In this document: in pieces, positions 12,260 to 62,114 of the stretch
Layout: each line of letters starts with the position of its first letter
How positions within the stretch are numbered: position 1 is the stretch's first letter
Assembly (NCBI GenBank): GCA_964647465.1
Contig: CAZYFS010000001.1
Location: 28,690-92,689 of the forward strand
Direction: 5' to 3'
Source of the DNA: an uncultured Candidatus Saccharibacteria bacterium
Lineage (GTDB): Bacteria > Patescibacteriota > Minisyncoccia > Minisyncoccales > UBA1441
DNA: 64,000 bases
The notes under the pieces: generated by a model
Seen by the model: only the letters and a program-made list of their open reading frames with translations
Databases searched by the model: none
What the model was told of the DNA's origin: nothing
Made by a program: the position numbers and the translations under genes

Positions 12260-13912
12260 TTATTCTTCTTTTGATAGTTGAAAAAATTCACTCGGGGAAG
12301 CCGTACTCACCCTCTCAACGGCTGAAGCAGTGCCACTAATAACCTTTTCTGTCCATTGATCTTTTCCTCTTACTTCCGATTCGCTTATGAATGAATTATC
12401 CACATCCTCTTCTTCTTCGGGCGTAAAGGAAACCTGAAAAACAATTAATGCTTTCTGCTCGGGATCTAATGTTCCCGCCTCCCAATTAAGCCGATTTCCT
12501 ACGACATTATAAGTTAATTTATTCTTCTCTTCTTTGGGAAAAATTTCTCCAGTTAATTCAGCTCCTTCTGGTAAAGATGCTCCGACCCAAATATCTTTTA
12601 CTTGATTGTAGTTATTTTCTATCTGCCAAAGAACCCCATAGGTTGTCTTTTCTCCTAAGGAAAAAGGAATTGGCCCGCTATTCTGGAAAAATTCTCCTTC
12701 TTGATAAACTTTCTGCGTTAACTGTAATTGAGAATTAATCTTTGTCGAAAATACCTTTCTTACTTGCCCAATTTCAATGGCGCTATCGACAACGGGATTT
12801 TGACTGCTAATTGGCCAACTTTCTTTTAGATCAACCCAGAATTCCACCATCCCTTCTTCCTCTGCATCAAGAAACTTTAATTCTGGAACTGTCTTCCAAT
12901 CCCAAAGAATTGTGTTGTCTCCTGGATAATAATTCCCACTAGAAGACTTTAGGGTTATTAAATCAAATTGATCTCCTTCGAGTCGAATGGTTAAGAACTG
13001 TTTCTCGATTGGAATTTCGCTAACATTACGAAAAAAGACCTGATAGTGAAGAAGATCCTCTGGGTTAGCTACGTAATTTAGAGAATTGTTAATCTGTTGA
13101 GAAATATAGATAGGGGAATAAGCAATCTCCACCCTTTGACTGACGTCTTTCAAGATAATAAACTTATCCTCAATCCATATTCCGAATTGAGCCTGTAAGA
13201 ACATTTCTGTTTCATTTTCCTGATTAGATTTTCCTATCATTTTAATCCGCCCTCCGTTACGTCCAATCAGAGTAGGAATTGACCATTCTCCTTTCTCCAT
13301 TCCTTGTGGCTCACTTTCTAACACTTCTAATCCCTCTGTTCGATTTAATTTAATTCCTAGATTCGAAATGGCTTGGTCAAGATAGGAAGAATAATCGAGA
13401 GAAAACTGAAATTCTTGAGATGGGCCAACTGATTTTGGTAAACTGAATTCAAAAGTAAAAGGAACTGACTGAATAGAGGTCGCTAATTCTGTCTCTGAGG
13501 TGTAATGAGCCTTTAATCCCTTAAGCCTATAATTCACTTCGGCCTTAGCGACAACTATTTCTTCTTTTTGACCAAAAAGCTTCCCTCTGAAACGAAAAAT
13601 CTTTTCCTGCCCTGGATAAATATCTTCTGCCAGTTCTTGACGATAAATTAAAACGGCTGGTTCGATAGCCTGGGCCTGGGAAGGAAAACGAAAAATTAAC
13701 TCCGGATAGACAAGAGTAGTTGCTCCTTCGTTGCGACACTTCAACACGTATTCTACTTCTTGGCCAGCCTGAATTGATTCTGGCCCCAAAAGCTGAAGAA
13801 CCAAATCTCCTTTAGAAGAGGCGTTCCTTTGATAGAACCAAGCTGCTACTCCAGCTGTCGCAACAAAGAGAACAAGAACTATTATTAAAAAAACTTTTTT
13901 AACTTGAGACAT
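12260..13912 (-). CDS. hypothetical N-terminally anchored secreted protein (550 aa)
   Basis: Single N-terminal hydrophobic anchor (KVFLIIVLVLFVATAGVAAWFY), then a long beta-rich-looking domain and a C-terminal acidic/Ser-rich tail. No recognisable motif. Confidence 0.4.
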   Translation of the reverse strand: MSQVKKVFLIIVLVLFVATAGVAAWFYQRNASSKGDLVLQLLGPESIQAGQEVEYVLKCRNEGATTLVYPELIFRFPSQAQAIEPAVLIYRQELAEDIYPGQEKIFRFRGKLFGQKEEIVVAKAEVNYRLKGLKAHYTSETELATSIQSVPFTFEFSLPKSVGPSQEFQFSLDYSSYLDQAISNLGIKLNRTEGLEVLESEPQGMEKGEWSIPTLIGRNGGRIKMIGKSNQENETEMFLQAQFGIWIEDKFIILKDVSQRVEIAYSPIYISQQINNSLNYVANPEDLLHYQVFFRNVSEIPIEKQFLTIRLEGDQFDLITLKSSSGNYYPGDNTILWDWKTVPELKFLDAEEEGMVEFWVDLKESWPISSQNPVVDSAIEIGQVRKVFSTKINSQLQLTQKVYQEGEFFQNSGPIPFSLGEKTTYGVLWQIENNYNQVKDIWVGASLPEGAELTGEIFPKEEKNKLTYNVVGNRLNWEAGTLDPEQKALIVFQVSFTPEEEEDVDNSFISESEVRGKDQWTEKVISGTASAVERVSTASPSEFFQLSKEE

Positions 13913-14681: not shown

Positions 14682-17600
14682 TTAGTTTTGATTAATGCCC
14701 AACCAGATTTCTTTCGAATTAATCTTTAGGTTTTTTTGAGCCAAAAGCTTTCCCTTGGCTTGAGACTTGCTAACAATCATTTCCGCTCGATTCTCTTCTA
14801 GAATTAAATCTCGAGAATCATCAATTAGTTTTTCTATTTCTGGGGTTCCTTGAATATAAAGAGTAATCCGGTGTGAGGCCTTCAGCCCTCCATCTTTTCT
14901 TAGCATTTGCACGGCGTGAATAATTTCCCTCAAAGATCCTTCCTTCCTTAACTGAATAGAAATTTTCTTTTTTAATCCAATTTGAATATTATTGTCTTCT
15001 CCTGTTTCCCAATCGTCATCCTCCGTTAATTTGGCAAAAACTATCTGCTTAATATTTAATTCTTCTTTTAGTAAAGCGACTGCTTCTTTGCTTAGTTTCT
15101 TTTCTTCTAAATTGCCTATCCTTAATTCCGACAAAGGTTGCCGAATTTTAATTCCCGCTTGCGCTCTCAGTTTGAGTCCTAGGCTAGCTATTTGCATAAT
15201 CATTTTCATTTCTTCTTCTATCGATTCGTTGATTAGAGATAGATTTGCCTTTGGATAATCGGTAAGATGAACAGAAACAGGAAAAGAGTCTTTGGTTTTT
15301 TTTATTAAGCTACTATAGATACTCTCGCCCAAAAAAGGAAGAAAGGGAGCTATCATCTGACTTAGCTTAAACAAAACACTTCCTAAAACTTGCGAGACTT
15401 CTTCTCTTTCCGAAGGAAAAGAACTCTGGAATCTATTTCGCGAACGACGAATATACCAATTCGATAAATCGTCGATGAAAGAAATAAATAATCTCGTTGC
15501 CCTTCCTACTTGATATTGTTCCATTTCCTCTGTCACCTGCTTGTTGATTTTGTTAAGACGAGAAAGAATCCAGCGATCTAAAATGTTTTTAGGCGATTGA
15601 ACCGAAGAAATAAAATCTCCCTCTGGATAAGTTTCGTAATAAGAAAAACAGTGCCAAAGAGTTAGGATGCTTTTTCGGAAGATTTCTTTAATTCCTTCTT
15701 CAGAAACAGAGAAATTGTTTCCCATTGGAGAATTCGTTAATAGGAAAAATCTTAGAGTATCTGCTCCGTACTTTTCTAAGACTAGATTAGGATCAACATA
15801 ATTCTTTAAATGCTTAGAAAGTTTTTGCCCTCCTTCGCCAACAATCAATCCATTGACGATGACATTCCGAAAAGCAGGGAGATTTTCCCCGAAACCAATA
15901 TCTTTCAAGGTTAAAGCTGTTGATAAAACATTCAAGGTATAAAACCAACCTCTTGTTTGATCGATTGCTTCAGCAACAAAATCAGCCGGGAACATGCTCT
16001 CTGTCAGGGCTTTATTCTTAAACGGATAATGATCTTGAGCATAGGGCATAGATCCCGACTCAAACCAACAATCAAAAACATCTGTAATCCTTGTCATTAC
16101 TTCTCCTTGAGGAGAATAAAATTTAATTTCATCGATATAAGGACGATGAAAATCAAGCACTCCTTCGGAATTATAAGGAAATAAATTGAATTTCCATGAT
16201 CGTAATTCCGCTGTTTTTAAATCTTGTTCCGGTGGCATTTCGCTTATTTCCTCTTGGGTCAATCCTTGACTCGCTGCTTCTAATGAATTAAAAACTCCTC
16301 TGTGACTAATAATTAGAATATTTTTCTTTTTATATTGTTGATCAATTTTCTTGAGAAAATCAAAAGCTCTTTTCTTAACTTGATTTCCTGTTTCTCCTCC
16401 ATTCGGCGAACGTGTTAATTTCTCTAGCTCAGAATTATAAAAAGCATAGTATTTTTCGAGAGATTCTTCCTCAAAAACTCCATGTTTAATTTCGCTTATT
16501 TCCGAAAAAAGACCTAAATGGAGATTAAGTGCTTTGCTAATTATTTCCGCAGTTTCTTTAGCTCGCAAAACATCTGACGCAATAATTATATCTATTTTCT
16601 TCTGCTTAAGAACCGGAATTAAATCTTCTATCTGCTTTCTTCCTTCGTTAGTGAGAGGATGTTTATCTTTCGCCGAAGAAACTAAATGCTTAACATTGCT
16701 TTCAGCTTGCCCATGACGAAGCAGCCAATAATGATTCGTTGTAAAAAGTTGTTTACGCAAATCTTCTCGGGATCCAATTACTTCTATCTCTTTTTGGGTC
16801 TCAGAAAACCAAACAGGAAGAGGTGCTCCCCAATACCGACTACGAGAAATTGACCAATCTTTTGCTCCAGCCAACCATTTCCCGAAACGCCCATCTTTTA
16901 GATGAGAAGGAACCCAGTTAATTTTTTGATTATTGGCTACTAATTGTTTCCTGAATTTCTCCACGGCGATATACCAACTATCTATAGGGTAATAGATTAA
17001 ACGGGTATCACAACGCCAACAGAAAGGATAGCTATGAGAAATTGTTTCCTTTTTCCATAACAGTCCTTTTTTTTGCAAATCCTCGACCATCTTTTCGCTT
17101 GCTGCCCAAACAGACTCTCCTTCTCCGGGAAGAGATAATCCATCTTTTATTTTTCCTCCAGCATCAACCGTTATTTTTGTAGACAAACCTTCTTTTTGAC
17201 CAAGGATCATATCGTCTTCCCCGAAAGCCGGAGCAATATGAACTAAGCCAGTTCCTTCCTCCATTGTCACCCATTCTGCTCCAACAATCCGATAATCATC
17301 TTTGCGCAAAGGAGCAATTTCATAAAGAGGCTTATATTTCTGCCCTAATAATTTTTCGCCTTTGAACTGTTCAATTATCTCGTATTCTTGATCGACGAGA
17401 AGTTCTTTTCTTGTTAAAGCAAGAATATAGCAATCCTTCCTTATCTTAACCTTAATATAGTCTTCCTCGGGATTAACGGCGACCCCAGTATTTGCTGGAA
17501 TAGTCCAAGGGGTAGTAGTCCAAACCAAAAGATAGGTTGAGGGATCTTTTTCAAGAGACACTTTGAAATAGATTGTCTCGTCCGCCTGATCTTGATAGGC

Positions 17601-18209
17601 TCCTGGCTGATTTAATTCAAAATTAGAAAGGGGCGTTCCGCAATGAGGACAATAGGGGGTGACTCGATAATCTTTATAGATAAGGTCTTGTTTATAAAGT
17701 TGCTTAAAAACCCACCAAACTGATTCAGTATAATCACTAGTTAAAGTTGCATAATGATTTTCATATTCTCCCCATCTTCCTATGCGTCGAAGAATTTTTT
17801 CAAAAGTAGCAAGATGACGAAAAACTAATTTCCGACAAGTTTCATTAAACTTTCCTATTCCTATTTTTTCAATATCCGTCTTGTCTTTAATTTTTAGTTC
17901 TGCTTCGGCTAAATTTTCAACTGGGAGGCCATGACAATCCCAACCAAAACGACGAGGAGCATAAAATCCTTTCATTGTCCAAAATCGTAGAACAGCATCC
18001 TTGATTGTAGAAGGAAGGAGATGACCATAATGAGGTTCACCTGTCGCAAAAGGAGGGCCATCATAAAAACTAAAATGAGGGCTCTTTTTTCTTTGCTCTA
18101 AGCTTTGTTCAAAAATTTTATTCTCTTTCCAGAATTTTAGAACTGATTTTTCTTTTTTTGAAAAATTAATATCCATAATTTTGAAATTACATTTTTTTAG
18201 GCGCTTCAA
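14682..18209 (-). CDS. ileS: isoleucine--tRNA ligase with an inserted PGAM-like histidine phosphatase domain
   Basis: 1175 aa. HYGH (HIGH), KLSKH (KMSKS), CP1 editing region, WSISRSRYWGAPLPVW and DVFDCWFESGS landmarks. Between these two landmarks lie about 200 extra residues with LLRHGQAESN...SDVLRAKETA...ISHRG, the histidine phosphatase signature. The likely start is the ATG at 18176-18178 (MDINFSKKEK...) rather than 18209. Confidence 0.9.
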   Translation of the reverse strand: MKRLKKCNFKIMDINFSKKEKSVLKFWKENKIFEQSLEQRKKSPHFSFYDGPPFATGEPHYGHLLPSTIKDAVLRFWTMKGFYAPRRFGWDCHGLPVENLAEAELKIKDKTDIEKIGIGKFNETCRKLVFRHLATFEKILRRIGRWGEYENHYATLTSDYTESVWWVFKQLYKQDLIYKDYRVTPYCPHCGTPLSNFELNQPGAYQDQADETIYFKVSLEKDPSTYLLVWTTTPWTIPANTGVAVNPEEDYIKVKIRKDCYILALTRKELLVDQEYEIIEQFKGEKLLGQKYKPLYEIAPLRKDDYRIVGAEWVTMEEGTGLVHIAPAFGEDDMILGQKEGLSTKITVDAGGKIKDGLSLPGEGESVWAASEKMVEDLQKKGLLWKKETISHSYPFCWRCDTRLIYYPIDSWYIAVEKFRKQLVANNQKINWVPSHLKDGRFGKWLAGAKDWSISRSRYWGAPLPVWFSETQKEIEVIGSREDLRKQLFTTNHYWLLRHGQAESNVKHLVSSAKDKHPLTNEGRKQIEDLIPVLKQKKIDIIIASDVLRAKETAEIISKALNLHLGLFSEISEIKHGVFEEESLEKYYAFYNSELEKLTRSPNGGETGNQVKKRAFDFLKKIDQQYKKKNILIISHRGVFNSLEAASQGLTQEEISEMPPEQDLKTAELRSWKFNLFPYNSEGVLDFHRPYIDEIKFYSPQGEVMTRITDVFDCWFESGSMPYAQDHYPFKNKALTESMFPADFVAEAIDQTRGWFYTLNVLSTALTLKDIGFGENLPAFRNVIVNGLIVGEGGQKLSKHLKNYVDPNLVLEKYGADTLRFFLLTNSPMGNNFSVSEEGIKEIFRKSILTLWHCFSYYETYPEGDFISSVQSPKNILDRWILSRLNKINKQVTEEMEQYQVGRATRLFISFIDDLSNWYIRRSRNRFQSSFPSEREEVSQVLGSVLFKLSQMIAPFLPFLGESIYSSLIKKTKDSFPVSVHLTDYPKANLSLINESIEEEMKMIMQIASLGLKLRAQAGIKIRQPLSELRIGNLEEKKLSKEAVALLKEELNIKQIVFAKLTEDDDWETGEDNNIQIGLKKKISIQLRKEGSLREIIHAVQMLRKDGGLKASHRITLYIQGTPEIEKLIDDSRDLILEENRAEMIVSKSQAKGKLLAQKNLKINSKEIWLGINQN

Positions 18210-19829: not shown

Positions 19830-20297
19830 ATGAAGATTCTTGCCGGAAATAAAAGAGCTTATTTCGATTATGACATCCAGGAAAAATTAGAAGCTGGGAT
19901 CGTTTTAACTGGGGCAGAAGTCAAATCGGCAAAACTGAAAAGAGTGGGACTAAAAGGATCCTATGTTATTCCATCGCTTACTGGAGAAATGACATTGATT
20001 AATGCAACCATTTCCCCTTATCAGGTCCGTAACACCCCAACCGATTATGATCCTCGTCGTCCTCGTAAATTACTATTAAAGAAAAAAGAAATCAGTTTTC
20101 TCATCGGAAAAGGGAAGCAAAAAGGCTTGACGTTGGTCCCCTTAAGAATGTATACTAAGCACAATCTAATTAAGATCGAAATTGGACTAGGACGAGGAAA
20201 GAAAAAATTCGACAAAAGAGCCAAGATTGCAAAGAGAGAAACAGATCGAAAGATAAATAGAGCACTTAAAGGGAAAGGGGATGAAGGGCTTCGATAG
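19830..20297 (+). CDS. smpB: SsrA-binding protein SmpB
   Basis: MKILAGNKRAYFDYDIQEKLEAGIVLTGAEVKSAK... is canonical SmpB. The start at ATG 19830 is preferred over the track start at 19758. The CDS 3' end overlaps the predicted tmRNA 5' end. Confidence 0.9.
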   Translation: MKILAGNKRAYFDYDIQEKLEAGIVLTGAEVKSAKLKRVGLKGSYVIPSLTGEMTLINATISPYQVRNTPTDYDPRRPRKLLLKKKEISFLIGKGKQKGLTLVPLRMYTKHNLIKIEIGLGRGKKKFDKRAKIAKRETDRKINRALKGKGDEGLR

Positions 20298-20605
20298 AGA
20301 TTCTAATCAAAACAGTTCAGGCTAAGGTGTTAGTTCCTTATAAAACTACTAACAAACAAAATCTGTTGATTCTGTTGCAGGCCTCGAGCCTGCCCTTGCT
20401 TACGCTTAATCTTTAAGCGTTCGCGTTCTCGCCGCCGATTCCCGATAAGCGGAACGAGGACTTATATTTCGGGAAATCAGTTCTTTAAGACGATAAATGC
20501 TTTTGCTTGATTCTTTGATTTATCGTTCTTACTTAATCAAGCTAAGTCTGTAAAAGTTGTTTTGCATTAATTTCTAGACGTGGGTTCAATTCCCGCCATC
20601 TCCAC
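20277..20605 (+). ncRNA. ssrA: tmRNA (ssrA)
   Basis: It lies immediately downstream of smpB. The 5' end GGGGATGAAGGGCTTCGAT matches the tmRNA 5' consensus (GGGGcUGauucUGGaUUCGAC). The 5' GGGGATG pairs with the 3' CATCTCC (7 bp, one G-U) to form a tRNA-like acceptor stem. T-arm: GTGGG-TTCAATT-CCCGC. Discriminator A follows, and CCA is not fully encoded. Candidate tag ORF at 20377-20409: GCA GGC CTC GAG CCT GCC CTT GCT TAC GCT TAA, giving (A)GLEPALAYA. Confidence 0.8.
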
Positions 20606-20654
20606 TAGTAAATTTATTTATTTATTTATAAAAAAAATAACGGAGGAAAATCAA

Positions 20655-28065: not shown

Positions 28066-28137
28066 TGCCCTTAGAAGGATTCGAACCTTCATTTCAACCT
28101 CCGGAGGGTTGCGCTTTATCCGTTAAGCTATAAGGAC
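28066..28137 (-). tRNA. tRNA-Arg (anticodon CCG)
   Basis: Manual fold of the reverse complement. Acceptor GTCCTTA/TAAGGGC (one G-U). D-arm GCTT-AACGGATA-AAGC. Anticodon stem CAACC/GGTTG with loop CTCCGGA (U33, anticodon CCG). Variable loop AAAT. T-arm GAAGG-TTCGAAT-CCTTC. Discriminator A. CCA is not encoded. Confidence 0.85.
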
Positions 28138-50952: not shown

Positions 50953-52446
50953 CTATTGAGATATACCCTGTTCGACGACAGGGATAATAGAAATACGTCC
51001 TACTTTTGGGCGAAAAGCTTCAGTTCCTCGCAAGATGGAACTGCTTTTTAAATCAGTGGTGCTATCCCTAAAAACCTGACAATCAGCACCAGCGTTTTCC
51101 TCATTATTATAGAGAGTGTCGTTACTCAATACCACCCAATAGCTTCCATCGACTTTGACGGAATAAATTCGTTCAAGGCCATTCCACGGATAATTAATCT
51201 CTTCTTCCCAGAAGTATTCGTGTCCATTTTGAATTTCGGCAGCAGAAATAGTGTGGCAACCAGCTCCGCTAACGTCGGTTGCGAAATCAAGGTTTTGGCA
51301 AAAAGTAACCCCACCTTTTAATTCTTTGCTGAACTGACGGGCAAAAACTTCAACACTGCGAATGCGACTCGGTTCAATATCTAGATCATCTAAGGCAGTG
51401 CATTTAGGAAGGATAGTGTAATTAATGTTTTCTGCGAGATTGTGGGTGTCTACTTCCCTTCCTTCGTGAACAATACCACATTGGCCCTCTCCTCCAGTCT
51501 TGGTATGAAAGACTCCTCCCCAATAAATATCAGGAGAATAATAATCAAGAGTGTCATTGTCATGACTAGATATCCAACCCTCAGCATTATTATAAGTAAA
51601 GCGAAAGCGGAGGGATTCAGTGTGATCATTGAAAAGCCCTAAGTCGCTGCTTCCTATTCCAATTGGCAAAGGAAGATTATTTGGATAATCTTCAAAATTT
51701 ATTCGGCAACCTCCGCCAAATATTCCTGCTGATGGGAATAACACTAATCCGGAAATTAAATCGTCGAAGTAGATAGATTTGGGGTTAGAAAAGAGTTCTT
51801 GGCGAGTATTTCCGCTCGCATCAACGAAATTATTTTCTATCGTTGTAAACGCTCCTCCGGCATAGTTATATTCAGGGAAAAGAAAAATAGCGCTTAATTC
51901 TTCTTTGGGGCTTTCGATTTCAACGAAGTCTATCTCGAAATCGGCTGGTAAAATAATTTCGGGAGTACTCTCTCTGATACAAAAGAGATCTTGTTTGCCC
52001 GTGTCGACATCTGGCTTGCTATATAAGCAAATGCCGTGAGCGGGAATAAGAGGTTCGTCGGTTATTCCTACAAGGCTCGGATTAATCGTGTGAACGACTA
52101 GATAAGACCCTAAAACGATCACAATCCCGAAAAGCCCGCCGTAAATTTTAGTTCGAGCGTTTTTCATTTTTGTTACCGAGCCAGCGGAAATCAAGTAAGA
52201 AATTCCTCCGTAAACAAGAATAACAAAAGCAATTATTCCAACGCTCTCGATAGCGAAATAAAATAAATAACTAAGATAAGCAGAGCCGTCAGCATCTGTT
52301 GAGGGAGCAGCTTGGCCACCAGGGAGAGTCGGATAATGAATCTCCAGTTCTCGAGCGAAAAGAGAGTCTGTTTTAATAGTAAAAAAAGTTCCGATTAAAA
52401 CAAGGCAAATAAAAACGATAAAAAGATATTTTGAGAAAGTTTTCAT
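50953..52446 (-). CDS. secreted/anchored protein with VirB2/TrbC-pilin-like two-helix N-terminal module (paralog of 52468..54921)
   Basis: 497 aa. Signal/TM, then IIAFVILVYGGISYLISAGSVTKMKNARTKIYGGLFGIVIVLGSYLVVHTINPSLVG, alignable with the N-terminus of the next ORF. A large C-terminal domain of unknown function follows. Confidence 0.5.
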   Translation of the reverse strand: MKTFSKYLFIVFICLVLIGTFFTIKTDSLFARELEIHYPTLPGGQAAPSTDADGSAYLSYLFYFAIESVGIIAFVILVYGGISYLISAGSVTKMKNARTKIYGGLFGIVIVLGSYLVVHTINPSLVGITDEPLIPAHGICLYSKPDVDTGKQDLFCIRESTPEIILPADFEIDFVEIESPKEELSAIFLFPEYNYAGGAFTTIENNFVDASGNTRQELFSNPKSIYFDDLISGLVLFPSAGIFGGGCRINFEDYPNNLPLPIGIGSSDLGLFNDHTESLRFRFTYNNAEGWISSHDNDTLDYYSPDIYWGGVFHTKTGGEGQCGIVHEGREVDTHNLAENINYTILPKCTALDDLDIEPSRIRSVEVFARQFSKELKGGVTFCQNLDFATDVSGAGCHTISAAEIQNGHEYFWEEEINYPWNGLERIYSVKVDGSYWVVLSNDTLYNNEENAGADCQVFRDSTTDLKSSSILRGTEAFRPKVGRISIIPVVEQGISQ

Positions 52447-52467
52447 TTTTAATAAATTAATTTTGAT

Positions 52468-54921
52468 TTAATTTTCCTCTTCTCCTGCCTCTGCGCAGAA
52501 GTAATTCAGCATCAGGTCTTTAACGGCTTCTTGACAGATTAGACCGTCTTGATTTTCCGAGCAAGCTTTCTTTTCGTCTTCTGATAAAGCATTGTTCCCA
52601 TAAGGGGAATCGCTATTATAGGGATAGCAATTTTTGAAATCGGGGAAGATAGTAATTCGAGAAGTGGATAGCTTATCAAGCAAAATCGAACAACTAAATA
52701 AGTCTTTAGTGGTTGCGTTTTCTCCGAACCCAGTAATGCAAGTTTCTAGCTTTTGGCGAACGTTCATTAGTTGATTGATTAACTCTGTCCTGCTTGGATC
52801 ATCTTCTTTCAAATTCTTAGCTTCAATTAAATCAATTAGATGATCAGTTCTCTTTTTAACTGATCTCTCTTCTTCTTCGAACCACTGGTTAACCTCAGCG
52901 CTTCTCCTAAAAATTATGCTTAATGGACAAGGATGCATCTCCATACTGGGGGCATTACAAGTACTACACGGACAACCAGGACAAGCACCACAATCATTAC
53001 ATCGACAACCATGAGTAGTGTAACAACCCCCACGCTTGCAATGAGTGGCAGCAGAGTCTTGGGTTGTTATCGTTCCAGAATTACATAGACAGCGAGGGGG
53101 TAAATTATAGAGAGTGCATTGATTCCCGGGATCTTTCTTGTCATAAACCGGACAAGCTTCTTCGGGGACAGAGGTTTCGACTAGGGTAGTTAGTTCAGGA
53201 ATGAGTTTTTCAATATAGGCTTCGGCGTCATCAATTAACTCGCCGATTGAAGCAGTCCCAACAGGAAAACCATCTTCTATTTCGGTGTCAACAACGCCTT
53301 CTGTAATATTTTGGCGGGCAGTGATTTTCTCTGCTCGTTCAGAAAAAGGTTTCGGGCAATAAAAAGTAAAAGCGTCTTGATCAAAGACATAACATTCTCG
53401 TTCTTCTCCTTGATTTTCGTTAGTTTCTGGTTCAACTCGGCAAATGATCCCTTCTTCGTCAGATGGCATTCTTTCGTCTTTCCCTTGCTCGTTATTTATG
53501 AGGTATTTTGAACATTTATAACTCGTCTGGGTTTGATTGTTCCACCATTGTTCAACTTCAGTCCCCTTTTCCAGTTTATCAAGATCACAATCTCCACACG
53601 AGATTTTCTCCCCATCTTCTTCGCAATCTTTGCAGTTAAAATCTCGACAATACTTTGTGATATCAAGTTGTTGTTCTTGATCACATTCTTCTCCCCATTG
53701 ATGTGGTTGATCGTTAAGGCAGAAGACAAATTGTTTCGTCCTTTCTTTGGTAATTTCTTTGATGTCGTAAAAAGCGGAATGGCTTATTATTGTTTGATAT
53801 TGACAATCGCTTTTATAAAGGCCCTCTGCTTTTTCAAGATAAGATAAATCTACCTCGAGGCTGGATTTATAGGCTGGAAGAAAATGATAAGCGAGGTATC
53901 TTAATTTATTAACAGTAGTTAGTTGAGAATAATCTTCCGTAGAAACGTGGACTAATTCACTATCTTCTAAGCAGTTGTGTCCACCAATAACTTGCTTCAT
54001 GTTTAGAACCTTTTCTCGAATTTGATTCATTTCTCCGCGACCTGGACAAGGATCTCCCGAGCAAACAGCTCCACAGCGACAACTTCCTGCGGGGGGACAG
54101 GGACAGCCACCACAACTACAATACCCACAAGCACATTGCTGGGATAAGTCCGCTAATCTTTTTGATTTGTCGCGAAGTTCTTTTCCTTTAATTTGGATCG
54201 CTTCGCTAATTCTCTTGAGACAGTCTAGGCGATCATTTCGAGTGATTGGCTGTGCTTCATTGAGAAAGTCTCCTTCATCATCAAAGGCGTAACATAGATA
54301 GGCAATTTCAGCGTCTTCGGCTATAGCGTTGGGCCATTGTTCCGGAAAATCAACTTTCATTTTTTCGGCAATTCTTTCCAATTCCCCTAGGGGAATTGGT
54401 GGAGAGAGATTAAACTGGTCGTAACGGCAGTCAGCTAGTTCACCAGAATCATCAAAACAACTAATGTTCTTAGCTAAAATTCGTTCTTCTAACAACATTC
54501 CAAAGGGAATCTCTTGAAAACCAAAAACAGTTTCTTCGGAAGGAGGGGGAGGGCTTGGTTCTTCTATAGTTCCTGGAGGAAGTTCATTAAGGATCGGTTG
54601 GAGTAGCTGAGGGTTTATTGTTTGGAGAATGAGATAAGAAAAAACGACAATCATTAATCCAGCTATTCCACCAATTATTTGTTTTTGAGCAGAACTCTTT
54701 GCCGCAACAGAACTGGTCGAAAAAAGATATTTTATCCCACCATAAATCAAAACCGCGAGAGAGATAATCCCGATTGATCTGATGCTGTAATCAAAAACGG
54801 TTCCGATTAGATTAGAAAAATCTTCTTCGGCAGCAAAAACGGAGGAAGGAAAAGAAATCAAGCAAAAAATATTTATCAAAAAAAAGAAGGCAATGCTTTT
54901 TTTAATTATCTTGGTAGTCAT
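52468..54921 (-). CDS. large cysteine-rich secreted protein with VirB2/TrbC-pilin-like N-terminal module
   Basis: 817 aa. Signal peptide, then IISLAVLIYGGIKYLFSTSSVAAKSSAQKQIIGGIAGLMIVVFSYLILQTINPQLL, followed by a poly-Pro linker. Two dense Cys clusters: CACGYCSCGGCPCPPAGSCRCGAVCSGDPCPG and CKRGGCYTTHGCRCNDCGACPGCPCSTCN. Confidence 0.5.
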   Translation of the reverse strand: MTTKIIKKSIAFFFLINIFCLISFPSSVFAAEEDFSNLIGTVFDYSIRSIGIISLAVLIYGGIKYLFSTSSVAAKSSAQKQIIGGIAGLMIVVFSYLILQTINPQLLQPILNELPPGTIEEPSPPPPSEETVFGFQEIPFGMLLEERILAKNISCFDDSGELADCRYDQFNLSPPIPLGELERIAEKMKVDFPEQWPNAIAEDAEIAYLCYAFDDEGDFLNEAQPITRNDRLDCLKRISEAIQIKGKELRDKSKRLADLSQQCACGYCSCGGCPCPPAGSCRCGAVCSGDPCPGRGEMNQIREKVLNMKQVIGGHNCLEDSELVHVSTEDYSQLTTVNKLRYLAYHFLPAYKSSLEVDLSYLEKAEGLYKSDCQYQTIISHSAFYDIKEITKERTKQFVFCLNDQPHQWGEECDQEQQLDITKYCRDFNCKDCEEDGEKISCGDCDLDKLEKGTEVEQWWNNQTQTSYKCSKYLINNEQGKDERMPSDEEGIICRVEPETNENQGEERECYVFDQDAFTFYCPKPFSERAEKITARQNITEGVVDTEIEDGFPVGTASIGELIDDAEAYIEKLIPELTTLVETSVPEEACPVYDKKDPGNQCTLYNLPPRCLCNSGTITTQDSAATHCKRGGCYTTHGCRCNDCGACPGCPCSTCNAPSMEMHPCPLSIIFRRSAEVNQWFEEEERSVKKRTDHLIDLIEAKNLKEDDPSRTELINQLMNVRQKLETCITGFGENATTKDLFSCSILLDKLSTSRITIFPDFKNCYPYNSDSPYGNNALSEDEKKACSENQDGLICQEAVKDLMLNYFCAEAGEEEN

Positions 54922-55287: not shown

Positions 55288-57081
55288 TTAAATTTCTTTT
55301 TTGATCATTCGTTTGGCTTCTTGAATCTTGGCAACCTCGGATGGATTAGTAGTGATAATTTGATCTTCGGCATAGGAAGCAACTACTTGCATTGCTACTC
55401 TTTTTGTCCCCGCAAAGAAAATTCCTTCTCCGACTTGAGTTGAGAGAAGAAGTTCTTTCTCTCTGTTTGTCAGCCCAAAAGTTTCTTGAATTAATCCAAT
55501 CGAAGCAGAGGACTGCTTCATTAGTAATTGAAGGGAAGAATTGTTAATAATTGGTTTCCCGTAACGTGAACCCATGAAGTCACTAACGTCCTGCGTAATG
55601 GTTGTTAGGCCGAGCCAATATTTTCGGGCTCTTTTAGCCATGCCGAAAAGAAAAGAGGCGCCATCTTCTGTTTTCATAATCCACCAAGCTTCGTCAATAA
55701 CAATAACCCTTTTCTTTAATGTTCCGCGAACGGAACTCCAAATGTGATGAAGGATAATATACATGGCAATTGGTCTCAAGTCATCGCTCATGTTTTTAAT
55801 GCCGAAAACGATTAATTTATTGTTCATATCGACATTAGTGGGTTGATTGAAAAAATTAGCATAACTCCCTCGAGTGTATTTACGTACTCTGCGCAACAAA
55901 GACTGAGCTCCATCCATGCTTTCAAGCACTTCTTCGAAATCTTGCATTAAAGGAGGTTTAAGTCGAGAGAAGTCTGTTCGTGAGGTAATATCGCAAGCAG
56001 CGTAAGTGGCCGTAAGGGCTTGATCAATAATTGCATCTTCTTCAGGGGTTAAGCCCCCCAACATTGTTCGAAAGAGTCCTACTAGATCAATGACGTTACG
56101 CCGAATAACATTGGCAGGATCTTCATCGGCCGTTGGTTGCGGCAAATCGAAGGCATTAAGGTGATTGGGAGAAGAAAGAGAAATATGGAAATAAGATCCA
56201 TCAACGGCGTCGGAAAGATATTTGTATTCATTTTCTGGGTCAATAACCATGACATCCACCCCTTCCATCAATTGGCGTAGAATTTCTAGCTTAGCGAAAT
56301 AACTTTTGCCTCCTCCACTTTTTCCAAAAATAACCTCATTGGCATTTTCTAAAGAGAAGCGGTCGAAAAGAATAAGCGAATTATTGTGCCTATTGATGCC
56401 AAAGAGAATTCCTTTATTGGAACTCAAGTCGAAAGAGATAAAAGGAAACATGCTCGAAAGAGGAGAGGTGTTCATTAAGGTGTGAACTTGTAATTGGTCG
56501 AGGCCATAAGGTGAACAACTAGTAAATCCTTCTATTTGCTGGAAAGAGGCTGGTTTAAGGTAAATCAGGCGCGACTCAAGAATAGCTCGGACATCTGTTT
56601 CTACATCCCTTAATTCATCAGTTGAAGCGCCATAAAGATTGAGATAAATTCCAACCCGAAACATTCTTTCTTGAGCATTTTTTAAGCTGGATCGAAGTGA
56701 TTCGACATCTTGGTAGGCTGTTTCTAATCCGGGATCACGGACAAAGCCCTTGCCTTCTCGGTCAATCATTTCAGCTTGAACTTCGGCAGATTTTTTTCTT
56801 AATTTCTTTAAAATAGAAGTGGTTTCAACTGGATGGAGAAAGAAGGTAAGATCAAGAGGCGAAGTTAGATTAATAATAGGCGATAGCCATCCAACTGATA
56901 AATAACGAGGATAAGAAAAAACAAAAAAAGTTTTTAATTGTTGTTTTTCAATTTCGACGTGATCTTTTTGTATCTTAACGGAAGAAGGAGCAATGAGGTC
57001 ACGGCTAGTTACTGCTTTGCTAACGGGAATCGTATTTCCTCCCAGGGAGGAAAATAGGTTTTTAAGTAAAGTTGATTTCAT
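55288..57081 (-). CDS. VirB4/TraC/TrbE-family T4SS ATPase, C-terminal (ATPase) portion
   Basis: Walker A FGKSGGGKSYFAK, Walker B VIVIDEAWW, and the TITQDVSDF motif. It overlaps the upstream ORF as ATGA. Confidence 0.85.
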   Translation of the reverse strand: MKSTLLKNLFSSLGGNTIPVSKAVTSRDLIAPSSVKIQKDHVEIEKQQLKTFFVFSYPRYLSVGWLSPIINLTSPLDLTFFLHPVETTSILKKLRKKSAEVQAEMIDREGKGFVRDPGLETAYQDVESLRSSLKNAQERMFRVGIYLNLYGASTDELRDVETDVRAILESRLIYLKPASFQQIEGFTSCSPYGLDQLQVHTLMNTSPLSSMFPFISFDLSSNKGILFGINRHNNSLILFDRFSLENANEVIFGKSGGGKSYFAKLEILRQLMEGVDVMVIDPENEYKYLSDAVDGSYFHISLSSPNHLNAFDLPQPTADEDPANVIRRNVIDLVGLFRTMLGGLTPEEDAIIDQALTATYAACDITSRTDFSRLKPPLMQDFEEVLESMDGAQSLLRRVRKYTRGSYANFFNQPTNVDMNNKLIVFGIKNMSDDLRPIAMYIILHHIWSSVRGTLKKRVIVIDEAWWIMKTEDGASFLFGMAKRARKYWLGLTTITQDVSDFMGSRYGKPIINNSSLQLLMKQSSASIGLIQETFGLTNREKELLLSTQVGEGIFFAGTKRVAMQVVASYAEDQIITTNPSEVAKIQEAKRMIKKEI

Positions 57082-57734
57082 TTAACGTCTTCTGTTAATT
57101 CTGGCATAATAGAGGGATAATATCCTACTTCGGCTGAATGTGGATGATACCAAGCCCAAAGCAACTCAATTAATTCGGGGGTTGTTAGCGGGGATGAGTT
57201 TAATCCACATCGCCTTAAGCCAATAGAAATAAACTCCATTCTTTGCCTTAACTGAGTCCTTGCTCTTTCGAAGGCTGATTCAGGAATTAATTCTTCTTGT
57301 TTTTTGGAAGCCAATAGTCTCTTGAATGAACTTGATCCCTCTACCTCAATTAGAGTGTAAGGAACAATCACTAAAAACCTTTTACTCATGATGGTTCCCC
57401 GATTAATAATTTTAGCAACAAAGCGTCTATAGTCAGCAGTTTGAATGCGCAATAGTTCGTTAGTTTGATTTTCTTCCAAGGTTTTCACTTTTTCGAGGTA
57501 GCCAGTTAAGTTCACTCGGCGAGATTGAACGGAAATCTGAGTATCGAAATCAAGAGAATTGATAAAATTTTGGAATTGAAAAATGATAGCCTCTTGTTCA
57601 TCGTTTGATTTAAGGGCAAAGTTCGAAGAAGAGAGCATGAGAATTCCTCGCAAAGCTTTGTTTTTTAAAATAATAACGCCATCTTTAATCTCCTGGAAAG
57701 GAAGGAATTCTTGTGTTGTTGCCTTATCGCCCAT
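57078..57734 (-). CDS. VirB4-family N-terminal domain (split from the ATPase portion)
   Basis: LPFQEIKDGVIILKNKALRGILMLSSSNFALKSNDEQEAIIFQFQNFINSL matches the conserved VirB4/TcpF/PrgJ N-terminal region. Confidence 0.7.
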   Translation of the reverse strand: MGDKATTQEFLPFQEIKDGVIILKNKALRGILMLSSSNFALKSNDEQEAIIFQFQNFINSLDFDTQISVQSRRVNLTGYLEKVKTLEENQTNELLRIQTADYRRFVAKIINRGTIMSKRFLVIVPYTLIEVEGSSSFKRLLASKKQEELIPESAFERARTQLRQRMEFISIGLRRCGLNSSPLTTPELIELLWAWYHPHSAEVGYYPSIMPELTEDVK

Positions 57735-58639: not shown

Positions 58640-59773
58640 ATGAAATCCAAAAGGTTAAGATCTCCAGGATGGTTGATTTTGTGGTTAGTCCCAACAGTTC
58701 TTTCGTGTTGGTTCTGGCTTTGGTGGGTCGGGGTTATTTATGCCCTGGTGATGATTTTCCCAGTTATTTTTTGGGGTCTTGCCGAGGACAACATTTGCTT
58801 CACCTTCATCTCCGAAGGAACAGCGAAGATTGTTACTCGTAGTGGAGCATTTCGCAAGGTTTTACTGCAATGGGAGGGCCGCGAATTAGACGGAAACGGC
58901 TATGTTGGGTTGATCGAAAAACCGGAGGAAGGCGCTTTATTGCAGAAGAAAAAATCTTTCAGTCAATGGCTTGAGCGACTGTTTGGAGGTCTTCGCTTTT
59001 ACGGTCTTTGGCCGTTGGCAGACATGCTCGTTTATGAGATGCAATGGTGGGGAGTAGACGGCAAAGGAGAGATAGATTTTCACGAGAAGGAACTTCTAGA
59101 TTTTGTCTTAGTTCGCCCCGACTTGTATTGGGGAGAAGTGACAGAAGCAGAAGACAAGAATTTACTCCCTCTGAGGGTGGAGTTTGTTATCACTCTTCAG
59201 ATTGTATGTCCTCGCAAGGCACTTCTTGATATCCAAAACTATCTTGAGGCGGTGATAGAAAGACTGAAGCCGGCAATCAGGGATAAGGTTACGAGCTCTT
59301 CTTACCAAGAGTTAATAGTGGATCCCACGGATGTTGCAAAGGCTATCTACGATGGAATTTCTGATCTTCGCGACGAGTTTATTCGGGATTATGGTGTTAA
59401 GTTAATCTCTTTTGACATCAAGAATATTGATCCTCCGAAAGGTTACATAGAGCAAACAATGGTTGCTTATCTGGCCGAACAAGAGGCGAAGAAGATAGAA
59501 AGGCTTGCCGAGGCGAGGGCTCTAGAAATTAACCTCATCAACAAGGCCGTTCAGGATTATGGAGATCTCGGTCTGGCCATCAGAACTCTCGAAGCTCTTG
59601 AGAAGTCTCCTTTGGCCGCCAGCATGATCGTCCAAAAAGTTCCTGGACTAGAGGCGGCCCTTAAATCCCTTGGAGGATCTAAGGGAGAAGTTTCTGAGAA
59701 GGAGCTAGGGACCCTTCTTAAAGAGCTAAAGATCGCTCTCCAAGAAATACAGGAGGGCAAAAAGGAGGAGTAG
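58640..59773 (+). CDS. SPFH/band-7 (stomatin/flotillin/HflK-like) membrane protein, GC-atypical
   Basis: N-terminal Trp-rich TM. EGTAKIVTRSGAF, ...DFVLVRPD..., DYGVKLISFDIKNIDPPKGYIEQTMVAYLAEQEAKKIERLAEA, and an Ala/Glu coiled coil. Visibly higher GC and different codon choice (GAG, CTG, GCC, CGC) than the flanks. Confidence 0.75.
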   Translation: MKSKRLRSPGWLILWLVPTVLSCWFWLWWVGVIYALVMIFPVIFWGLAEDNICFTFISEGTAKIVTRSGAFRKVLLQWEGRELDGNGYVGLIEKPEEGALLQKKKSFSQWLERLFGGLRFYGLWPLADMLVYEMQWWGVDGKGEIDFHEKELLDFVLVRPDLYWGEVTEAEDKNLLPLRVEFVITLQIVCPRKALLDIQNYLEAVIERLKPAIRDKVTSSSYQELIVDPTDVAKAIYDGISDLRDEFIRDYGVKLISFDIKNIDPPKGYIEQTMVAYLAEQEAKKIERLAEARALEINLINKAVQDYGDLGLAIRTLEALEKSPLAASMIVQKVPGLEAALKSLGGSKGEVSEKELGTLLKELKIALQEIQEGKKEE

Positions 59774-59843: not shown

Positions 59844-62114
59844 TTATAATCTATTTCTTCCCCTCGTTCCGGATCTTATTTTCTTCCTTTGCCGATTCAA
59901 CTGCTTTTTTAGTTTTGCTTGCCCGCGAACTTTTTCTCTTTTTTGTTTTGCAAGAGAAGGACCAGATTGAATAAAACCACCTTTTTCGCGAGCTCGATCT
60001 TGCATTCCTTTAGATAAAACCAACCCATTAACAATTTTTCCCACTTTTTTAAGAGATTCATCGAGAGATTTTTGAATCTCTACGGCGCTTTTGCCATCGC
60101 GAAGACCAATTCCTGATCTTGCAGCAGCCGTACTTTGTCGATAAAAGGCTAAAGATGAGTTTCTTGGCCGACCGGTATTTTTATTAATATCGGTGTAGAA
60201 ATCAGTTGTTTTTGGCGGGGCTGCTTGAATGGCATTACTAAATTTGTGACCCATTGTTTCAGCTGCTTTCGCCCATTGGTTTCCTCCCCAGAATTCATGG
60301 ATGGCGCTTTGGACACTAGAGGAGGCGATGGAAGAGCTTAATCTTTTGATTGCATCTGTATCGCCAGCCTTATCAACAATTCGATCAGTGTAACTATTGT
60401 AACCCTTTCCTGCTCGATCTTCTGCTTGTTGTTCCTTGGTGTAAGCTCCTGTTTCCTGAGCTATTCGCCCGAACATTTCTCCTAATTCTCCAGCGTAAAG
60501 TTCCTCTAGGGCCTTAGCTGTTTCTTTGGCGGTTTTATTGCCTTTAGCTTGTATGGCGGTTCGATATAATTTTTCTACGCCGACGTCATCAAGAGAAGAG
60601 TTTTTCTTAAATTGCTCAAAGTTTCCATCTTTAATTTCAGAGGCAACGATAGCTAATTGAGCCATTGGATTTATTGCCGAATTAAATCGAGAAACATTTT
60701 CATTGGTTGTTTTCCCTTTAGCTTTTTCCATGGCTACCTGAAGCGCTTTTCCGCGAGAAGTTGTTGTCATGGAGCTAACAGTTCTTCCGGTTAATCGTTT
60801 GGCATAACCACCGAAACCCTTTCCTTCTTCCATAGACATTTTTTCAATTGCTTCTTCTCCTCTTGCAACCCCAGATCTAGTGAAGACTCCTCGGGCTCCC
60901 CCCATAATAGCGTGACCAGTGCCAGCCCCAAATCCTGCATCGCCGGATTTTCTTAATTGTCGTCCTTCTGCGGCTCCTTGTTTAATCCCGACAATTGCTC
61001 CGGTGGTTCGTCGTACTGTTCCTACTCCTCCAGCCTTAAGTCCTTTCTTTAGCACTCCCTTCCCTCTATTGCCGATTGCCTTTGCTCTGCTTACAACAAG
61101 ATTGCTTCCGGTAGCGCTTACTTGCAGGGTAAAAAGAAAGCCAGCTATTAGGAAAATCATAGGAACGCTATATTGAGCAACGGTTGTCATAAAATTTGAT
61201 CCCGCTGTATTGTTTAGAACCATATTCGTTGTGGGTCGACTTACAGTTTCCTCAATTAATTTGTCGCTTAAGTAAATAACAAGAGCGGCAGGAATGCCGA
61301 TAATACTCCAGTTAATAAACTCCTTCCACCATCTTTGAAAATGTTTTTGACCAAAAGGAAAGATCCAAAGGAGGAAAGCAAGGGGCGAAATAATAATAAG
61401 CAACCAAAGAATGACATAACGCATCGCAAAGAGAAAAGCGAAAATCAAATAAATAAACATTGCGACAAAATTAAAAACGACAAGCAATAACCCTTTTGCT
61501 AAAGCAATCGCCGGATCAGCAGTAAGTCCTCCGCCTGTCAAAGTTGCAAACTGGCTTGCTATTTCTCCCCCCATTCCCGAGAGGAGAGTCGTGGTTTCTG
61601 GTAAAAAGATCCTGGTAACAACATTTGCTCCATCAATAATAATTCCACAAAGAGCAGGAGTGAAATTTATTAAAAGAGCGACAACAATAATTCGAAAAAG
61701 GGCCTGTTTTGTTTTAAAATTAGCTAGACTTAAAGCGGTTGCTAATCCTATATAGACTAAGCCAAGTATAATAAAGGACATCGAAAAATTCCTCATCATC
61801 GTCCATCCTTCTTGGACAATGAAGTTGTCAGGTCCGGTAAAACTTACTCCAATAAAAGAATCACTGATAACCCATTGAAAGATTTGTTGGGCGAATTCCA
61901 TAAAAGGAGCAGTTAGAGCAGTTAGGACAGCAAAAACAACCATTACTATTGCGTTGGAGAAAATATTCATAGCTCCACTTACTATCCCGAAAAGATCCCA
62001 AGAAAAGTTTGCTTCAGCCGAGAGAGGAAGAATTAAAATAAACAAAGAGAAGACAAAAACAAGACTAGTGAATAGTTTTCTTTTTTTGAAAAAACCTAGT
62101 AAAGAAAAATTCAT
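59844..62114 (-). CDS. VirB6/TrbL-like polytopic membrane protein with ~350-aa Gly/Ala/Lys-rich C-terminal extension
   Basis: 756 aa. Signal/TM plus about 6-7 TM helices with conserved Trp (FQRWWKEFINW). The C-terminal half is hydrophilic with G/A/K/R-rich low complexity and a highly basic tail KQKREKVRGQAKLKKQLNRQRKKIRSGTRGRNRL. Confidence 0.55.
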   Translation of the reverse strand: MNFSLLGFFKKRKLFTSLVFVFSLFILILPLSAEANFSWDLFGIVSGAMNIFSNAIVMVVFAVLTALTAPFMEFAQQIFQWVISDSFIGVSFTGPDNFIVQEGWTMMRNFSMSFIILGLVYIGLATALSLANFKTKQALFRIIVVALLINFTPALCGIIIDGANVVTRIFLPETTTLLSGMGGEIASQFATLTGGGLTADPAIALAKGLLLVVFNFVAMFIYLIFAFLFAMRYVILWLLIIISPLAFLLWIFPFGQKHFQRWWKEFINWSIIGIPAALVIYLSDKLIEETVSRPTTNMVLNNTAGSNFMTTVAQYSVPMIFLIAGFLFTLQVSATGSNLVVSRAKAIGNRGKGVLKKGLKAGGVGTVRRTTGAIVGIKQGAAEGRQLRKSGDAGFGAGTGHAIMGGARGVFTRSGVARGEEAIEKMSMEEGKGFGGYAKRLTGRTVSSMTTTSRGKALQVAMEKAKGKTTNENVSRFNSAINPMAQLAIVASEIKDGNFEQFKKNSSLDDVGVEKLYRTAIQAKGNKTAKETAKALEELYAGELGEMFGRIAQETGAYTKEQQAEDRAGKGYNSYTDRIVDKAGDTDAIKRLSSSIASSSVQSAIHEFWGGNQWAKAAETMGHKFSNAIQAAPPKTTDFYTDINKNTGRPRNSSLAFYRQSTAAARSGIGLRDGKSAVEIQKSLDESLKKVGKIVNGLVLSKGMQDRAREKGGFIQSGPSLAKQKREKVRGQAKLKKQLNRQRKKIRSGTRGRNRL

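Follow-up and report, generated by a model that had tools for sequence, protein, structure and literature searches.

Two T4SS_pilin-type proteins with large C-terminal domains form a candidate pilin array beside virB4 in a Candidatus Saccharibacteria genome

The DNA analysed here, referred to as the window, is a stretch of 64,000 nucleotides from an uncultured Candidatus Saccharibacteria bacterium, a member of the ultra-small Patescibacteria (assembly GCA_964647465.1, contig CAZYFS010000001.1, positions 28,690 to 92,689 of the forward strand). Directly downstream of a gene for a VirB4-type ATPase of a type IV secretion system (T4SS), it carries two neighbouring genes for predicted secreted proteins of 497 and 817 residues, which we call the 497-type and the 817-type. 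The two proteins share an N-terminal pilin-type module and are otherwise unrelated, each continuing into a large ectodomain of its own. With moderate confidence, we interpret both as ectodomain-bearing pilins of the Pfam family PF18895, forming a two-gene 'pilin array' of an origin-proximal T4SS that resembles the MPF-FATA type, with a role in host contact. They would most likely be the pilin-anchored host-contact proteins of this T4SS, and it is plausible that they are its surface or tip effectors, as the initial annotation of this DNA had suggested.

A shared two-helix block of the PF18895 family

The initial annotation described two paralogous open reading frames (ORFs) with a common N-terminal block. 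Both ORFs and the peptides quoted for them are present on the minus strand. The span given there, 52074-54789, runs from the end of the block in the 497-aa protein to its start in the 817-aa protein; the blocks themselves lie at the positions listed in Table 1. A pairwise BLASTP comparison bears out the paralogy: residues 49-126 of the 497-aa protein align without gaps to residues 30-107 of the 817-aa protein at 42% identity and 68% positives, and the E value of 5e-18 holds with compositional adjustment. All remaining segments of the pair have E > 0.9. As this is the only significant segment, the paralogy is limited to the N-terminal block of approximately 80 residues.

A profile of the block (80 columns, alignment A1) has invariant residues at G34, Y37, I74, N75 and P76. 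When searched against 1.84 billion cluster representatives, it retrieves 63,870 clusters at E <= 1e-3 and 12,071 at E <= 1e-10. Given the invariant G, Y and I-N-P and the 12,071 clusters retrieved, the similarity between the two proteins is not an artefact of hydrophobicity. Transmembrane segments do often match spuriously, and our Pfam scans returned weak matches to Htr2, DUF6524, DUF2165, DctQ and FtsX, which we take to be hydrophobic noise. Nevertheless, the E value of the pair, the invariant G, Y, N and P, the number of clusters retrieved and the conserved gene order described below refute the proposition that the block is a chance or compositional resemblance of hydrophobic N-termini with neither a common origin nor a relation to pilins, and we give it next to no credence.

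The top Pfam match of both proteins is PF18895 (T4SS_pilin), with 18.4 bits (E 0.0023) for the 817-aa protein and 14.7 bits (E 0.033) for the 497-aa protein. The same family is matched by seven of the nine proteins in the 497-type alignment, the window protein included (best E 7.6e-08), by 78 of the 80 best relatives found with the block profile, and, in precomputed annotations, by full-length homologues of the 817-aa protein (P0007, P0010, P0012-14 and P0016). These matches show, at the family level, that the block belongs to PF18895, the VirB2-like pilin family of Patescibacteria. Furthermore, two short pilins of the same subfamily, P0111 (134 aa) and P0115 (133 aa), stop a few residues past the TINPxL motif that ends the block. 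Thus, the block by itself amounts to a whole small pilin, to which the ectodomains have been added at the C-terminus. In the NCBIfam scan, the 497-aa protein also has a weak match to the Mbov_0395 pilin-like family NF045849 (E 0.013, residues 59-118, 15.2 bits against a cut-off of 40). A pilin of the type IV pilus (T4P) kind, with a class III signal peptide, was considered and rejected: the G/FTLIE-type prepilin motif is absent, and there are two helices, not one.

In a Kyte-Doolittle scan, each protein has exactly three hydrophobic segments, namely the h-region of the signal peptide, helix 1 and helix 2, and there is none in the C-terminal 370 residues of the 497-aa protein or the C-terminal 709 of the 817-aa protein. 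The loop between the helices carries a charge of +4 (497 aa) or +2 (817 aa) and no acidic residue. The segments preceding helix 1 and following helix 2 are acidic in both proteins, and the ectodomains have net charges of -33 (497 aa) and -59 (817 aa). Because the loop is basic, hydropathy and the positive-inside rule show for both proteins a predicted topology with the loop inside and the N- and C-termini outside. In hydropathy and charge, both proteins have the arrangement of the PF18895 family: a Sec signal peptide, two hydrophobic helices and a short basic loop. Candidate signal peptidase I sites that fit the -3/-1 rule are VFA|A in the 817-aa protein and LFA|R in the 497-aa protein, and cleavage is presumed to occur there. 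AlphaFold2 (AF2) models the block of the 817-aa protein as a helical hairpin (residues 35-67 and 72-102), which is compatible with VirB2 and not specific to it.

Just after the predicted cleavage site, the 497-aa protein has the motif L-E-[IV]-x-Y-P-x-[ILV]-P-G (residues 32-47, nt 52306-52353). The motif is also found in most relatives (P0014-P0020, P0111 and P0115) and is absent from the 817-aa protein of the window; a variant of it precedes every module of the multi-module relative P0025.

The initial annotation had likened the block to VirB2/TrbC conjugative pilins. The pilin-type assignment stands through PF18895, but no direct match to PF04956 (TrbC/VirB2) was obtained, and the link is transitive only. 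One 497-type orthologue matches PF04956 at E 0.087, and the hhalign comparison of the block profile with a single Agrobacterium VirB2 is not significant. The connection instead passes through repeat proteins found by the block profile (P0040, P0045 and P0064), which score above the PF18895 cut-off as well as that of PF04956; the segments that score best with the two models overlap in P0064. The repeat units of these proteins align to the block profile with Prob 97.6% (E 2.7e-12) and to a 30-sequence alignment of Agrobacterium-type VirB2 with Prob 18% (P 0.0013). This VirB2 alignment is narrow, with at least 54% identity, a tblastn search of plasmids for diverse VirB2 having given only Rhizobiaceae and Acetobacteraceae. 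Small pilins of Southlakia epibionticum are likewise reported to match both families (PMC10633639 Table S2, Wang et al. 2023). Finally, 370 residues follow helix 2 in the 497-aa protein and 709 in the 817-aa protein, whereas classical VirB2/TrbC ends shortly past this helix (mature length ~70-120 aa).

Tandem arrangements of the module were also observed. Among the 150 best block-profile matches, 77 hold 2-17 two-helix modules in a single polypeptide (within P0025-P0090). P0064 (583 aa) has seven modules back to back with no space for signal peptides, and P0025 has four, with an 'FQLEMPLG' motif ahead of each one and an SLT lytic transglycosylase domain at the C-terminus of the protein. Such proteins could be real 'poly-pilins', polyproteins or fused gene calls.

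Ectodomains, conserved gene order and spread of the long form

About 30 of the 47 cysteines in the 817-aa ectodomain are invariant among orthologues down to approximately 27% identity, and between orthologues the ectodomain is at least as well conserved as the block (e.g., 53% versus 43% identity). Evidently, the ectodomains are under purifying selection. The AF2 model of the 817-aa protein (predicted local distance difference test, pLDDT, 63; predicted template-modelling score 0.64) has a largely helical core, and the dense CxC/CxxC clusters lie in low-confidence regions around it. Foldseek finds no match to this model at E <= 0.001, and a sequence search of the PDB with the 817 family is empty. 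Other module proteins share a sub-domain that lies just past the linker, among them some with a C39-like or LTD domain at their end.

For the 497-aa protein, the AF2 model made from a seven-sequence alignment is unusable (pLDDT 38.8), though rich in strands. One 497-type orthologue weakly matches Crystall PF00030 (E 0.0016), and the sole PDB match of the 497-type family profile is 3hzb (E 0.3), in a region that resembles a Greek-key motif. For the window protein itself, there is no crystallin match (PF00030 or PF08964). A profile of the C-terminal ~130 residues of the 497-type matches about 50 other module proteins, and in one of these, P0153, the matched region overlaps a bona fide Crystall domain. 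On these three weak signals, we take the 497-type ectodomain to be probably a binding domain of the beta/gamma-crystallin type. In relatives, the block is also joined to SLT, SLT_3, Peptidase_M23, C39-like and C70 peptidase, Inhibitor_I36, LTD, dockerin and crystallin domains, a diversity which suggests that the module acts as a carrier.

The gene order KsgA, TrbL, p114, PrgI, TrsD, VirB4, tm115, 817-type, 497-type, Jag, YidC, DnaA recurs, in whole or in part as far as the contig extends, in seven species-level metagenome-assembled genomes (MAGs). Orthologues of the 497-type occupy the same position in seven further loci, and the six full-length ones were aligned (A5). In four more distant loci (L005, L017, L019 and L021), the 817-type gene is followed by genes for two to four module proteins of 420-560 aa, whose ectodomains match the 497-type ectodomain profiles. 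The MAGs with close relatives of the 817-aa protein are labelled Candidatus Saccharibacteria, Patescibacteria group or Parcubacteria. In 10 of 11 related T4SS loci, the gene directly preceding the 817-type gene encodes tm115, a polytopic membrane protein of 115 residues, even when the array is detached from virB4. The alignment of tm115 has invariant residues at D24, W61, R65, E91, P94, G97, W103 and V107. Speculatively, tm115 may be a dedicated partner in insertion or assembly, for which we take TraQ, in its relation to F-pilin, as the comparison.

To obtain an independent sample, 79 metagenome loci were picked solely by two block peptide patterns. Their 117 complete single-module ORFs have a median length of 468 aa; 114 of them exceed 250 aa, and two are of 180 aa or less. 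Usually, a protein of 570-880 aa comes first, and one or two of 330-500 aa come after it. Detectable 817-type ectodomains are present in 18 of 47 large proteins and 497-type ectodomains in 27 of 68 mid-size ones, the others having different ectodomains. For the single-module proteins among the best matches of the search in cluster representatives, the C-terminal extension has a median length of 368 aa. Both samples are biased toward the blocks nearest to the query. All 25 metagenome loci of at least 15 kb contain T4SS genes, and 21 of the 25 contain VirB4. Hence, for this subtype, the block is not found widely in proteins that lack a link to T4SS genes, although exceptions exist.

The initial annotation had regarded such proteins next to a VirB4 as a non-standard oddity, a view that we do not share: VirB2-like genes beside virB4 are the published norm in Patescibacteria (PMC12102498), and the long form is usual in our samples of this subtype.

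Proposed mechanism, alternatives and comparison with known systems

In the interpretation that we favour, the precursors would be exported by Sec and, by the -3/-1 rule, cut by signal peptidase I after VFA (817 aa) or LFA (497 aa). The two helices are predicted by hydropathy and the positive-inside rule to insert as a hairpin, with the basic loop in the cytoplasm and both ends outside, so that the acidic C-terminal domain would be displayed outside the cell on a Pro-rich linker. The VirB4 machine would then extract the hairpins from the membrane, as it does with VirB2 pilins, and the hairpins may then assemble on a short pilus-like stalk or at its end, or may stay docked at the channel. The cysteine-rich domain of the 817-aa protein and the beta-rich, probably crystallin-like domain of the 497-aa protein could serve as modules for contact with, or binding to, the host cell. 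The lumen of F- and T-pili is lined, in the published structures, by the loop between the helices, with the termini on the outer face, a geometry in which a C-terminal domain can be displayed. Since a domain of 40-80 kDa on each subunit would crowd a VirB2-type filament, a minor, tip or low-copy role is favoured over a homopolymer, or, as the alternative to such a role, an open, decorated assembly.

Several observations weigh against this interpretation. Neither window protein reaches the gathering cut-off of PF18895 (26.6 bits) or matches PF04956 at E <= 1 in the Pfam scan, and the block profile aligns to the 30-sequence VirB2 alignment with a Prob of 2%, a weak negative given how narrow that set is. 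A PDB sequence search with the block profile found nothing. Fold searches return mostly generic helical bundles, the hairpin itself being a fold of generic kind, and do not confirm the likeness to pilins. The crystallin signal for the 497-aa ectodomain is weak (E 0.3 and 0.0016). The 64-kb window contains no small plain pilin, so that a major, filament-forming subunit is missing, unless another part of the genome encodes it. Certain module proteins have no T4SS gene nearby (e.g., P0019 in L006), and in a published survey a PF18895 gene is near virB4 in only 1,135 of 1,948 assemblies (PMC12102498). Finally, a pilus has yet to be demonstrated for any T4SS of Patescibacteria (PMC12857230).

Some of these observations could be accommodated if the hairpin were only a membrane anchor. 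The two proteins would then remain in the cytoplasmic membrane, as static proteins of the surface or as structural components of the T4SS envelope complex, never extracted or polymerised, and their linkage to the T4SS would reflect co-regulation or a scaffold. Module proteins without T4SS linkage and the lack of a small pilin in the window fit this explanation, as does the steric awkwardness of a large ectodomain on each subunit of a VirB2-type filament, judged from published F- and T-pilus geometry. Positioned at the membrane surface, the SLT, M23 and C39-like enzymes of the relatives could likewise act on the wall of the cell itself or on a host attached to it. Furthermore, Gram-positive T4SSs are normally without a pilus (PMC12102498). 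However, the module is homologous to pilins that are complete at 133-134 aa, and members of the same Pfam family, the small pilins of S. epibionticum, are essential (PMC10633639). The adjacency to VirB4 is very tight and widely conserved, and pilin-like invariant positions are kept across very different ectodomains. On balance, we regard a purely anchoring role as rather unlikely, at about one chance in several. A further explanation, which we judge improbable, is that both are pro-proteins: the ectodomain would be cut off at or just past T-I-N-P-x-L and released or delivered as a T4SS-associated effector, and the small pilin left behind would polymerise. Such processing would remove the steric difficulty and account for the lack of a small pilin. 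The invariant I-N-P coincides exactly with the junction at which the short pilins stop, a Pro-rich, low-confidence linker follows it, and classical TrbC and VirB2 do undergo C-terminal processing. Against this, the Pfam and NCBIfam scans reveal no candidate protease in the cluster, and the short pilins, from which nothing has to be removed, contain the motif too.

The favoured interpretation of the two proteins as ectodomain-bearing pilins can be extended, tentatively and with a good deal of doubt, to a broad group of Patescibacteria. The VirB2-derived hairpin would there be a general carrier, and an essential, relaxase-less T4SS would extract it and display or deliver large host-targeting ectodomains with no conventional small-subunit pilus. 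Under this proposal, the cargo would comprise a conserved, cysteine-rich protein of about 800 aa, one to four crystallin-like binders and, in other lineages, SLT, M23 and C39-like enzymes that cleave wall or protein, with the membrane partner of about 115 aa assisting. If true, this would be an undescribed T4SS organisation and a lead to how epibionts breach or hold their hosts.

The closest known counterpart is the array SEML1_0014-0019 of S. epibionticum ML1, whose pilins belong to the same Pfam family as the N-terminal module of the window proteins (PMC10633639, PMC12102498). Patescibacterial T4SS clusters such as that of S. epibionticum share with the window PrgI, TrsD, VirB4 and TrbL/VirB6, a location near dnaA, rnpA and ksgA, and the absence of any relaxase seen; in both cases, at least two divergent module genes stand in tandem beside virB4. 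They differ in the size of the products: SEML1_0017, 0018 and 0019, and also 0024 outside the cluster, are genes of 381-435 nt for small pilins, whereas the window proteins have 497 and 817 residues. Unlike the small-pilin array of S. epibionticum, the window cluster has no small pilin, and the conserved tm115 gene precedes the large gene. Both the T4SS genes of S. epibionticum and its pilin array are essential (PMC10633639).

Classical VirB2/TrbC/TraA pilins (PF04956; T-pilus structures 8EXH and 8CUE, TraA structures of the F-pilus) resemble the window proteins in their long signal peptide, two helices, short basic loop, outward-facing ends and adjacency to VirB4; they have no direct profile match to the block, the link being transitive as described above. 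In contrast to the classical setting, the host here is a monoderm with a T4SS of the Gram-positive type, and polymerisation is here a proposal. The large C-terminal extension also excludes head-to-tail cyclisation of the full-length protein. A parallel in design is offered by modular T4P pilins such as PilB and PilC of Streptococcus sanguinis, which reportedly combine a small N-terminal module for polymerisation or anchoring with a large adhesive or enzymatic C-terminal module and act as minor pilins. The principle is the same as in the window proteins, but the fold and the machinery are unrelated: modular T4P pilins carry a class III signal peptide and only one N-terminal helix, and their assembly depends on an ATPase of the type found in T4P and type II secretion systems. 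The proposed role in contact with the target cell recalls VirB5/TraC-type tip proteins and the Gram-positive T4SS adhesin PrgB. No sequence similarity to these was found in the Pfam and NCBIfam scans, and the window proteins would be anchored by a VirB2-like hairpin, unlike the soluble tip proteins (VirB5/TraC) or an adhesin with an LPXTG anchor (PrgB). The published survey detected no PrgB-like adhesins in Patescibacteria (PMC12102498). The Mbov_0395 family (NF045849) of Mycoplasma integrative conjugative elements is also two-helical and pilin-like and belongs to a monoderm system of the MPF-FATA type, but it is small (profile length 80) and has no ectodomain.

Both the cluster type and the 'VirB2-like pilin array' were thus already published between 2023 and 2025, and the arrays studied by experiment consist of small pilins. 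The survey takes any PF18895 match as VirB2, without lengths; it counts VirB2-like genes in 1,948 assemblies, often in arrays of 2-11 (PMC12102498). In the Patescibacterial T4SS literature that we searched, the ectodomain-bearing forms, the pair of one large and one mid-size protein, tm115 and the block-fused enzymes are unmentioned; subscription-only papers were outside this search, and a prior description is possible. In a perspective from 2024, the role of the T4SS in Patescibacteria is described as "completely unknown" (PMC11665869), although the system is essential in S. epibionticum, the one species tested for this. Our results suggest that in many lineages the T4SS 'pilins' are surface proteins of 350-880 aa with conserved outer domains that are cysteine-rich or lectin-like and elsewhere enzymatic. 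If this is true, the ectodomains are obvious candidates for host recognition or attack, and the repertoire of VirB2-type pilins extends to modular, ectodomain-bearing forms, in parallel to the modular type IV pilins. The ectodomains also provide concrete targets for antibodies, CRISPR interference (CRISPRi), binding assays and structure determination.

Genomic setting in the window

The two genes close a minus-strand operon in the order 114-aa protein, PrgI, TrsD-like, VirB4, tm115, 817-aa and 497-aa protein (Table 1). Neighbouring genes overlap or are separated by 3-21 nt, and from virB4 to the 497-aa gene all gaps are of 3-21 nt. Upstream of the operon are the divergent Band_7 gene, the TrbL_3/VirB6-like gene and ksgA; downstream of the 497-aa gene are jag, yidC, rnpA, dnaA and dnaN. 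By its sequence, the cluster is of the MPF-FATA type (Gram-positive-like), chromosomal and next to the replication origin. This agrees with the description of Patescibacterial T4SSs as MPF-FATA-like, mostly relaxase-less and located near dnaA, dnaN, rnpA and ksgA (Quinonero-Coronel et al. 2025, PMC12102498). There is no coupling protein among the window ORFs of 480 aa or more, and no relaxase was seen in the cluster, ORFs below 480 aa not having been scanned for relaxases.

Table 1. Positions of the T4SS-linked genes and of the parts of the two module proteins in the window
Feature	Position (nt)	Strand	Residues	Remarks
497-aa pilin-module gene (497-type)	50953..52446	minus		intact ORF
497-aa protein, predicted signal peptide	52354-52446	minus	1-31	
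497-aa protein, T4SS_pilin-like two-helix module	52066-52305	minus	48-127	
497-aa protein, beta-rich acidic ectodomain (predicted)	50956-52065	minus	128-497	
817-aa pilin-module gene (817-type)	52468..54921	minus		intact ORF
817-aa protein, predicted signal peptide	54832-54921	minus	1-30	
817-aa protein, two-helix module	54598-54837	minus	29-108	
817-aa protein, Pro-rich linker, then 709-aa ectodomain (predicted)	52471-54597	minus	109-817	47 cysteines
tm115, polytopic membrane protein, 115 aa	54937..55284	minus		immediately upstream of 817-type gene; no family match (Pfam, NCBIfam)
VirB4-type ATPase, 597 aa, CD1110 / MPF-FATA type	55288..57081	minus		NF045971 363 bits (cut-off 325); PF19044 E 3.9e-33
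TrsD/TraC-like, 218 aa, separate ORF like the VirB4 N-terminal domain	57078..57734	minus		overlaps virB4 by 4 nt
PrgI family (VirB3-like), 140 aa	57724..58146	minus		PF12666 34.9 bits (cut-off 27)
Conserved protein p114, 114 aa	58146..58490	minus		first gene of the operon; position kept in related loci; no Pfam/NCBIfam match
SPFH/Band_7 gene	58640..59773	plus		PF01145 E 1.7e-12; divergent, between the TrbL-like gene and the rest of the operon
TrbL/VirB6-like, 756 aa, polytopic	59844..62114	minus		precomputed PF19590 TrbL_3 match; position conserved

In NCBIfam, the 218-aa TrsD/TraC-like protein weakly matches TrsD and the N-terminal portions of VirB4 models, and it also has a precomputed match to PF26593 (TraC-like). 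The split into a TrsD-like and a VirB4 ORF is kept in all related loci and has already been described for Patescibacteria, in which TrsD is the most abundant T4SS component (PMC12102498). For the 756-aa protein, our own Pfam hmmscan gave no family at E <= 1, PF19590 included; its disagreement with the precomputed match is probably a difference of version or filter. The SPFH/Band_7 gene is kept only in the closest relatives (L008 and L009) and not in more distant loci, and whether it is part of the T4SS is uncertain.

Elsewhere in the window, the minus-strand ORF at 14682-18209 encodes a class I tRNA synthetase of 1175 aa (IleRS-like) whose catalytic domain is split into two halves by an inserted histidine-phosphatase domain (His_Phos_1, E 6.8e-32; residues 495-659). 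A 550-aa ORF among the aminoacyl-tRNA synthetase genes (12260-13912, minus strand) matches no Pfam family at E <= 1e-5. The sole Rfam matches in the window, which has no rRNA, are a tmRNA (97.5 bits) at 20277-20607 on the plus strand and a tRNA at 28066-28137 on the minus strand.

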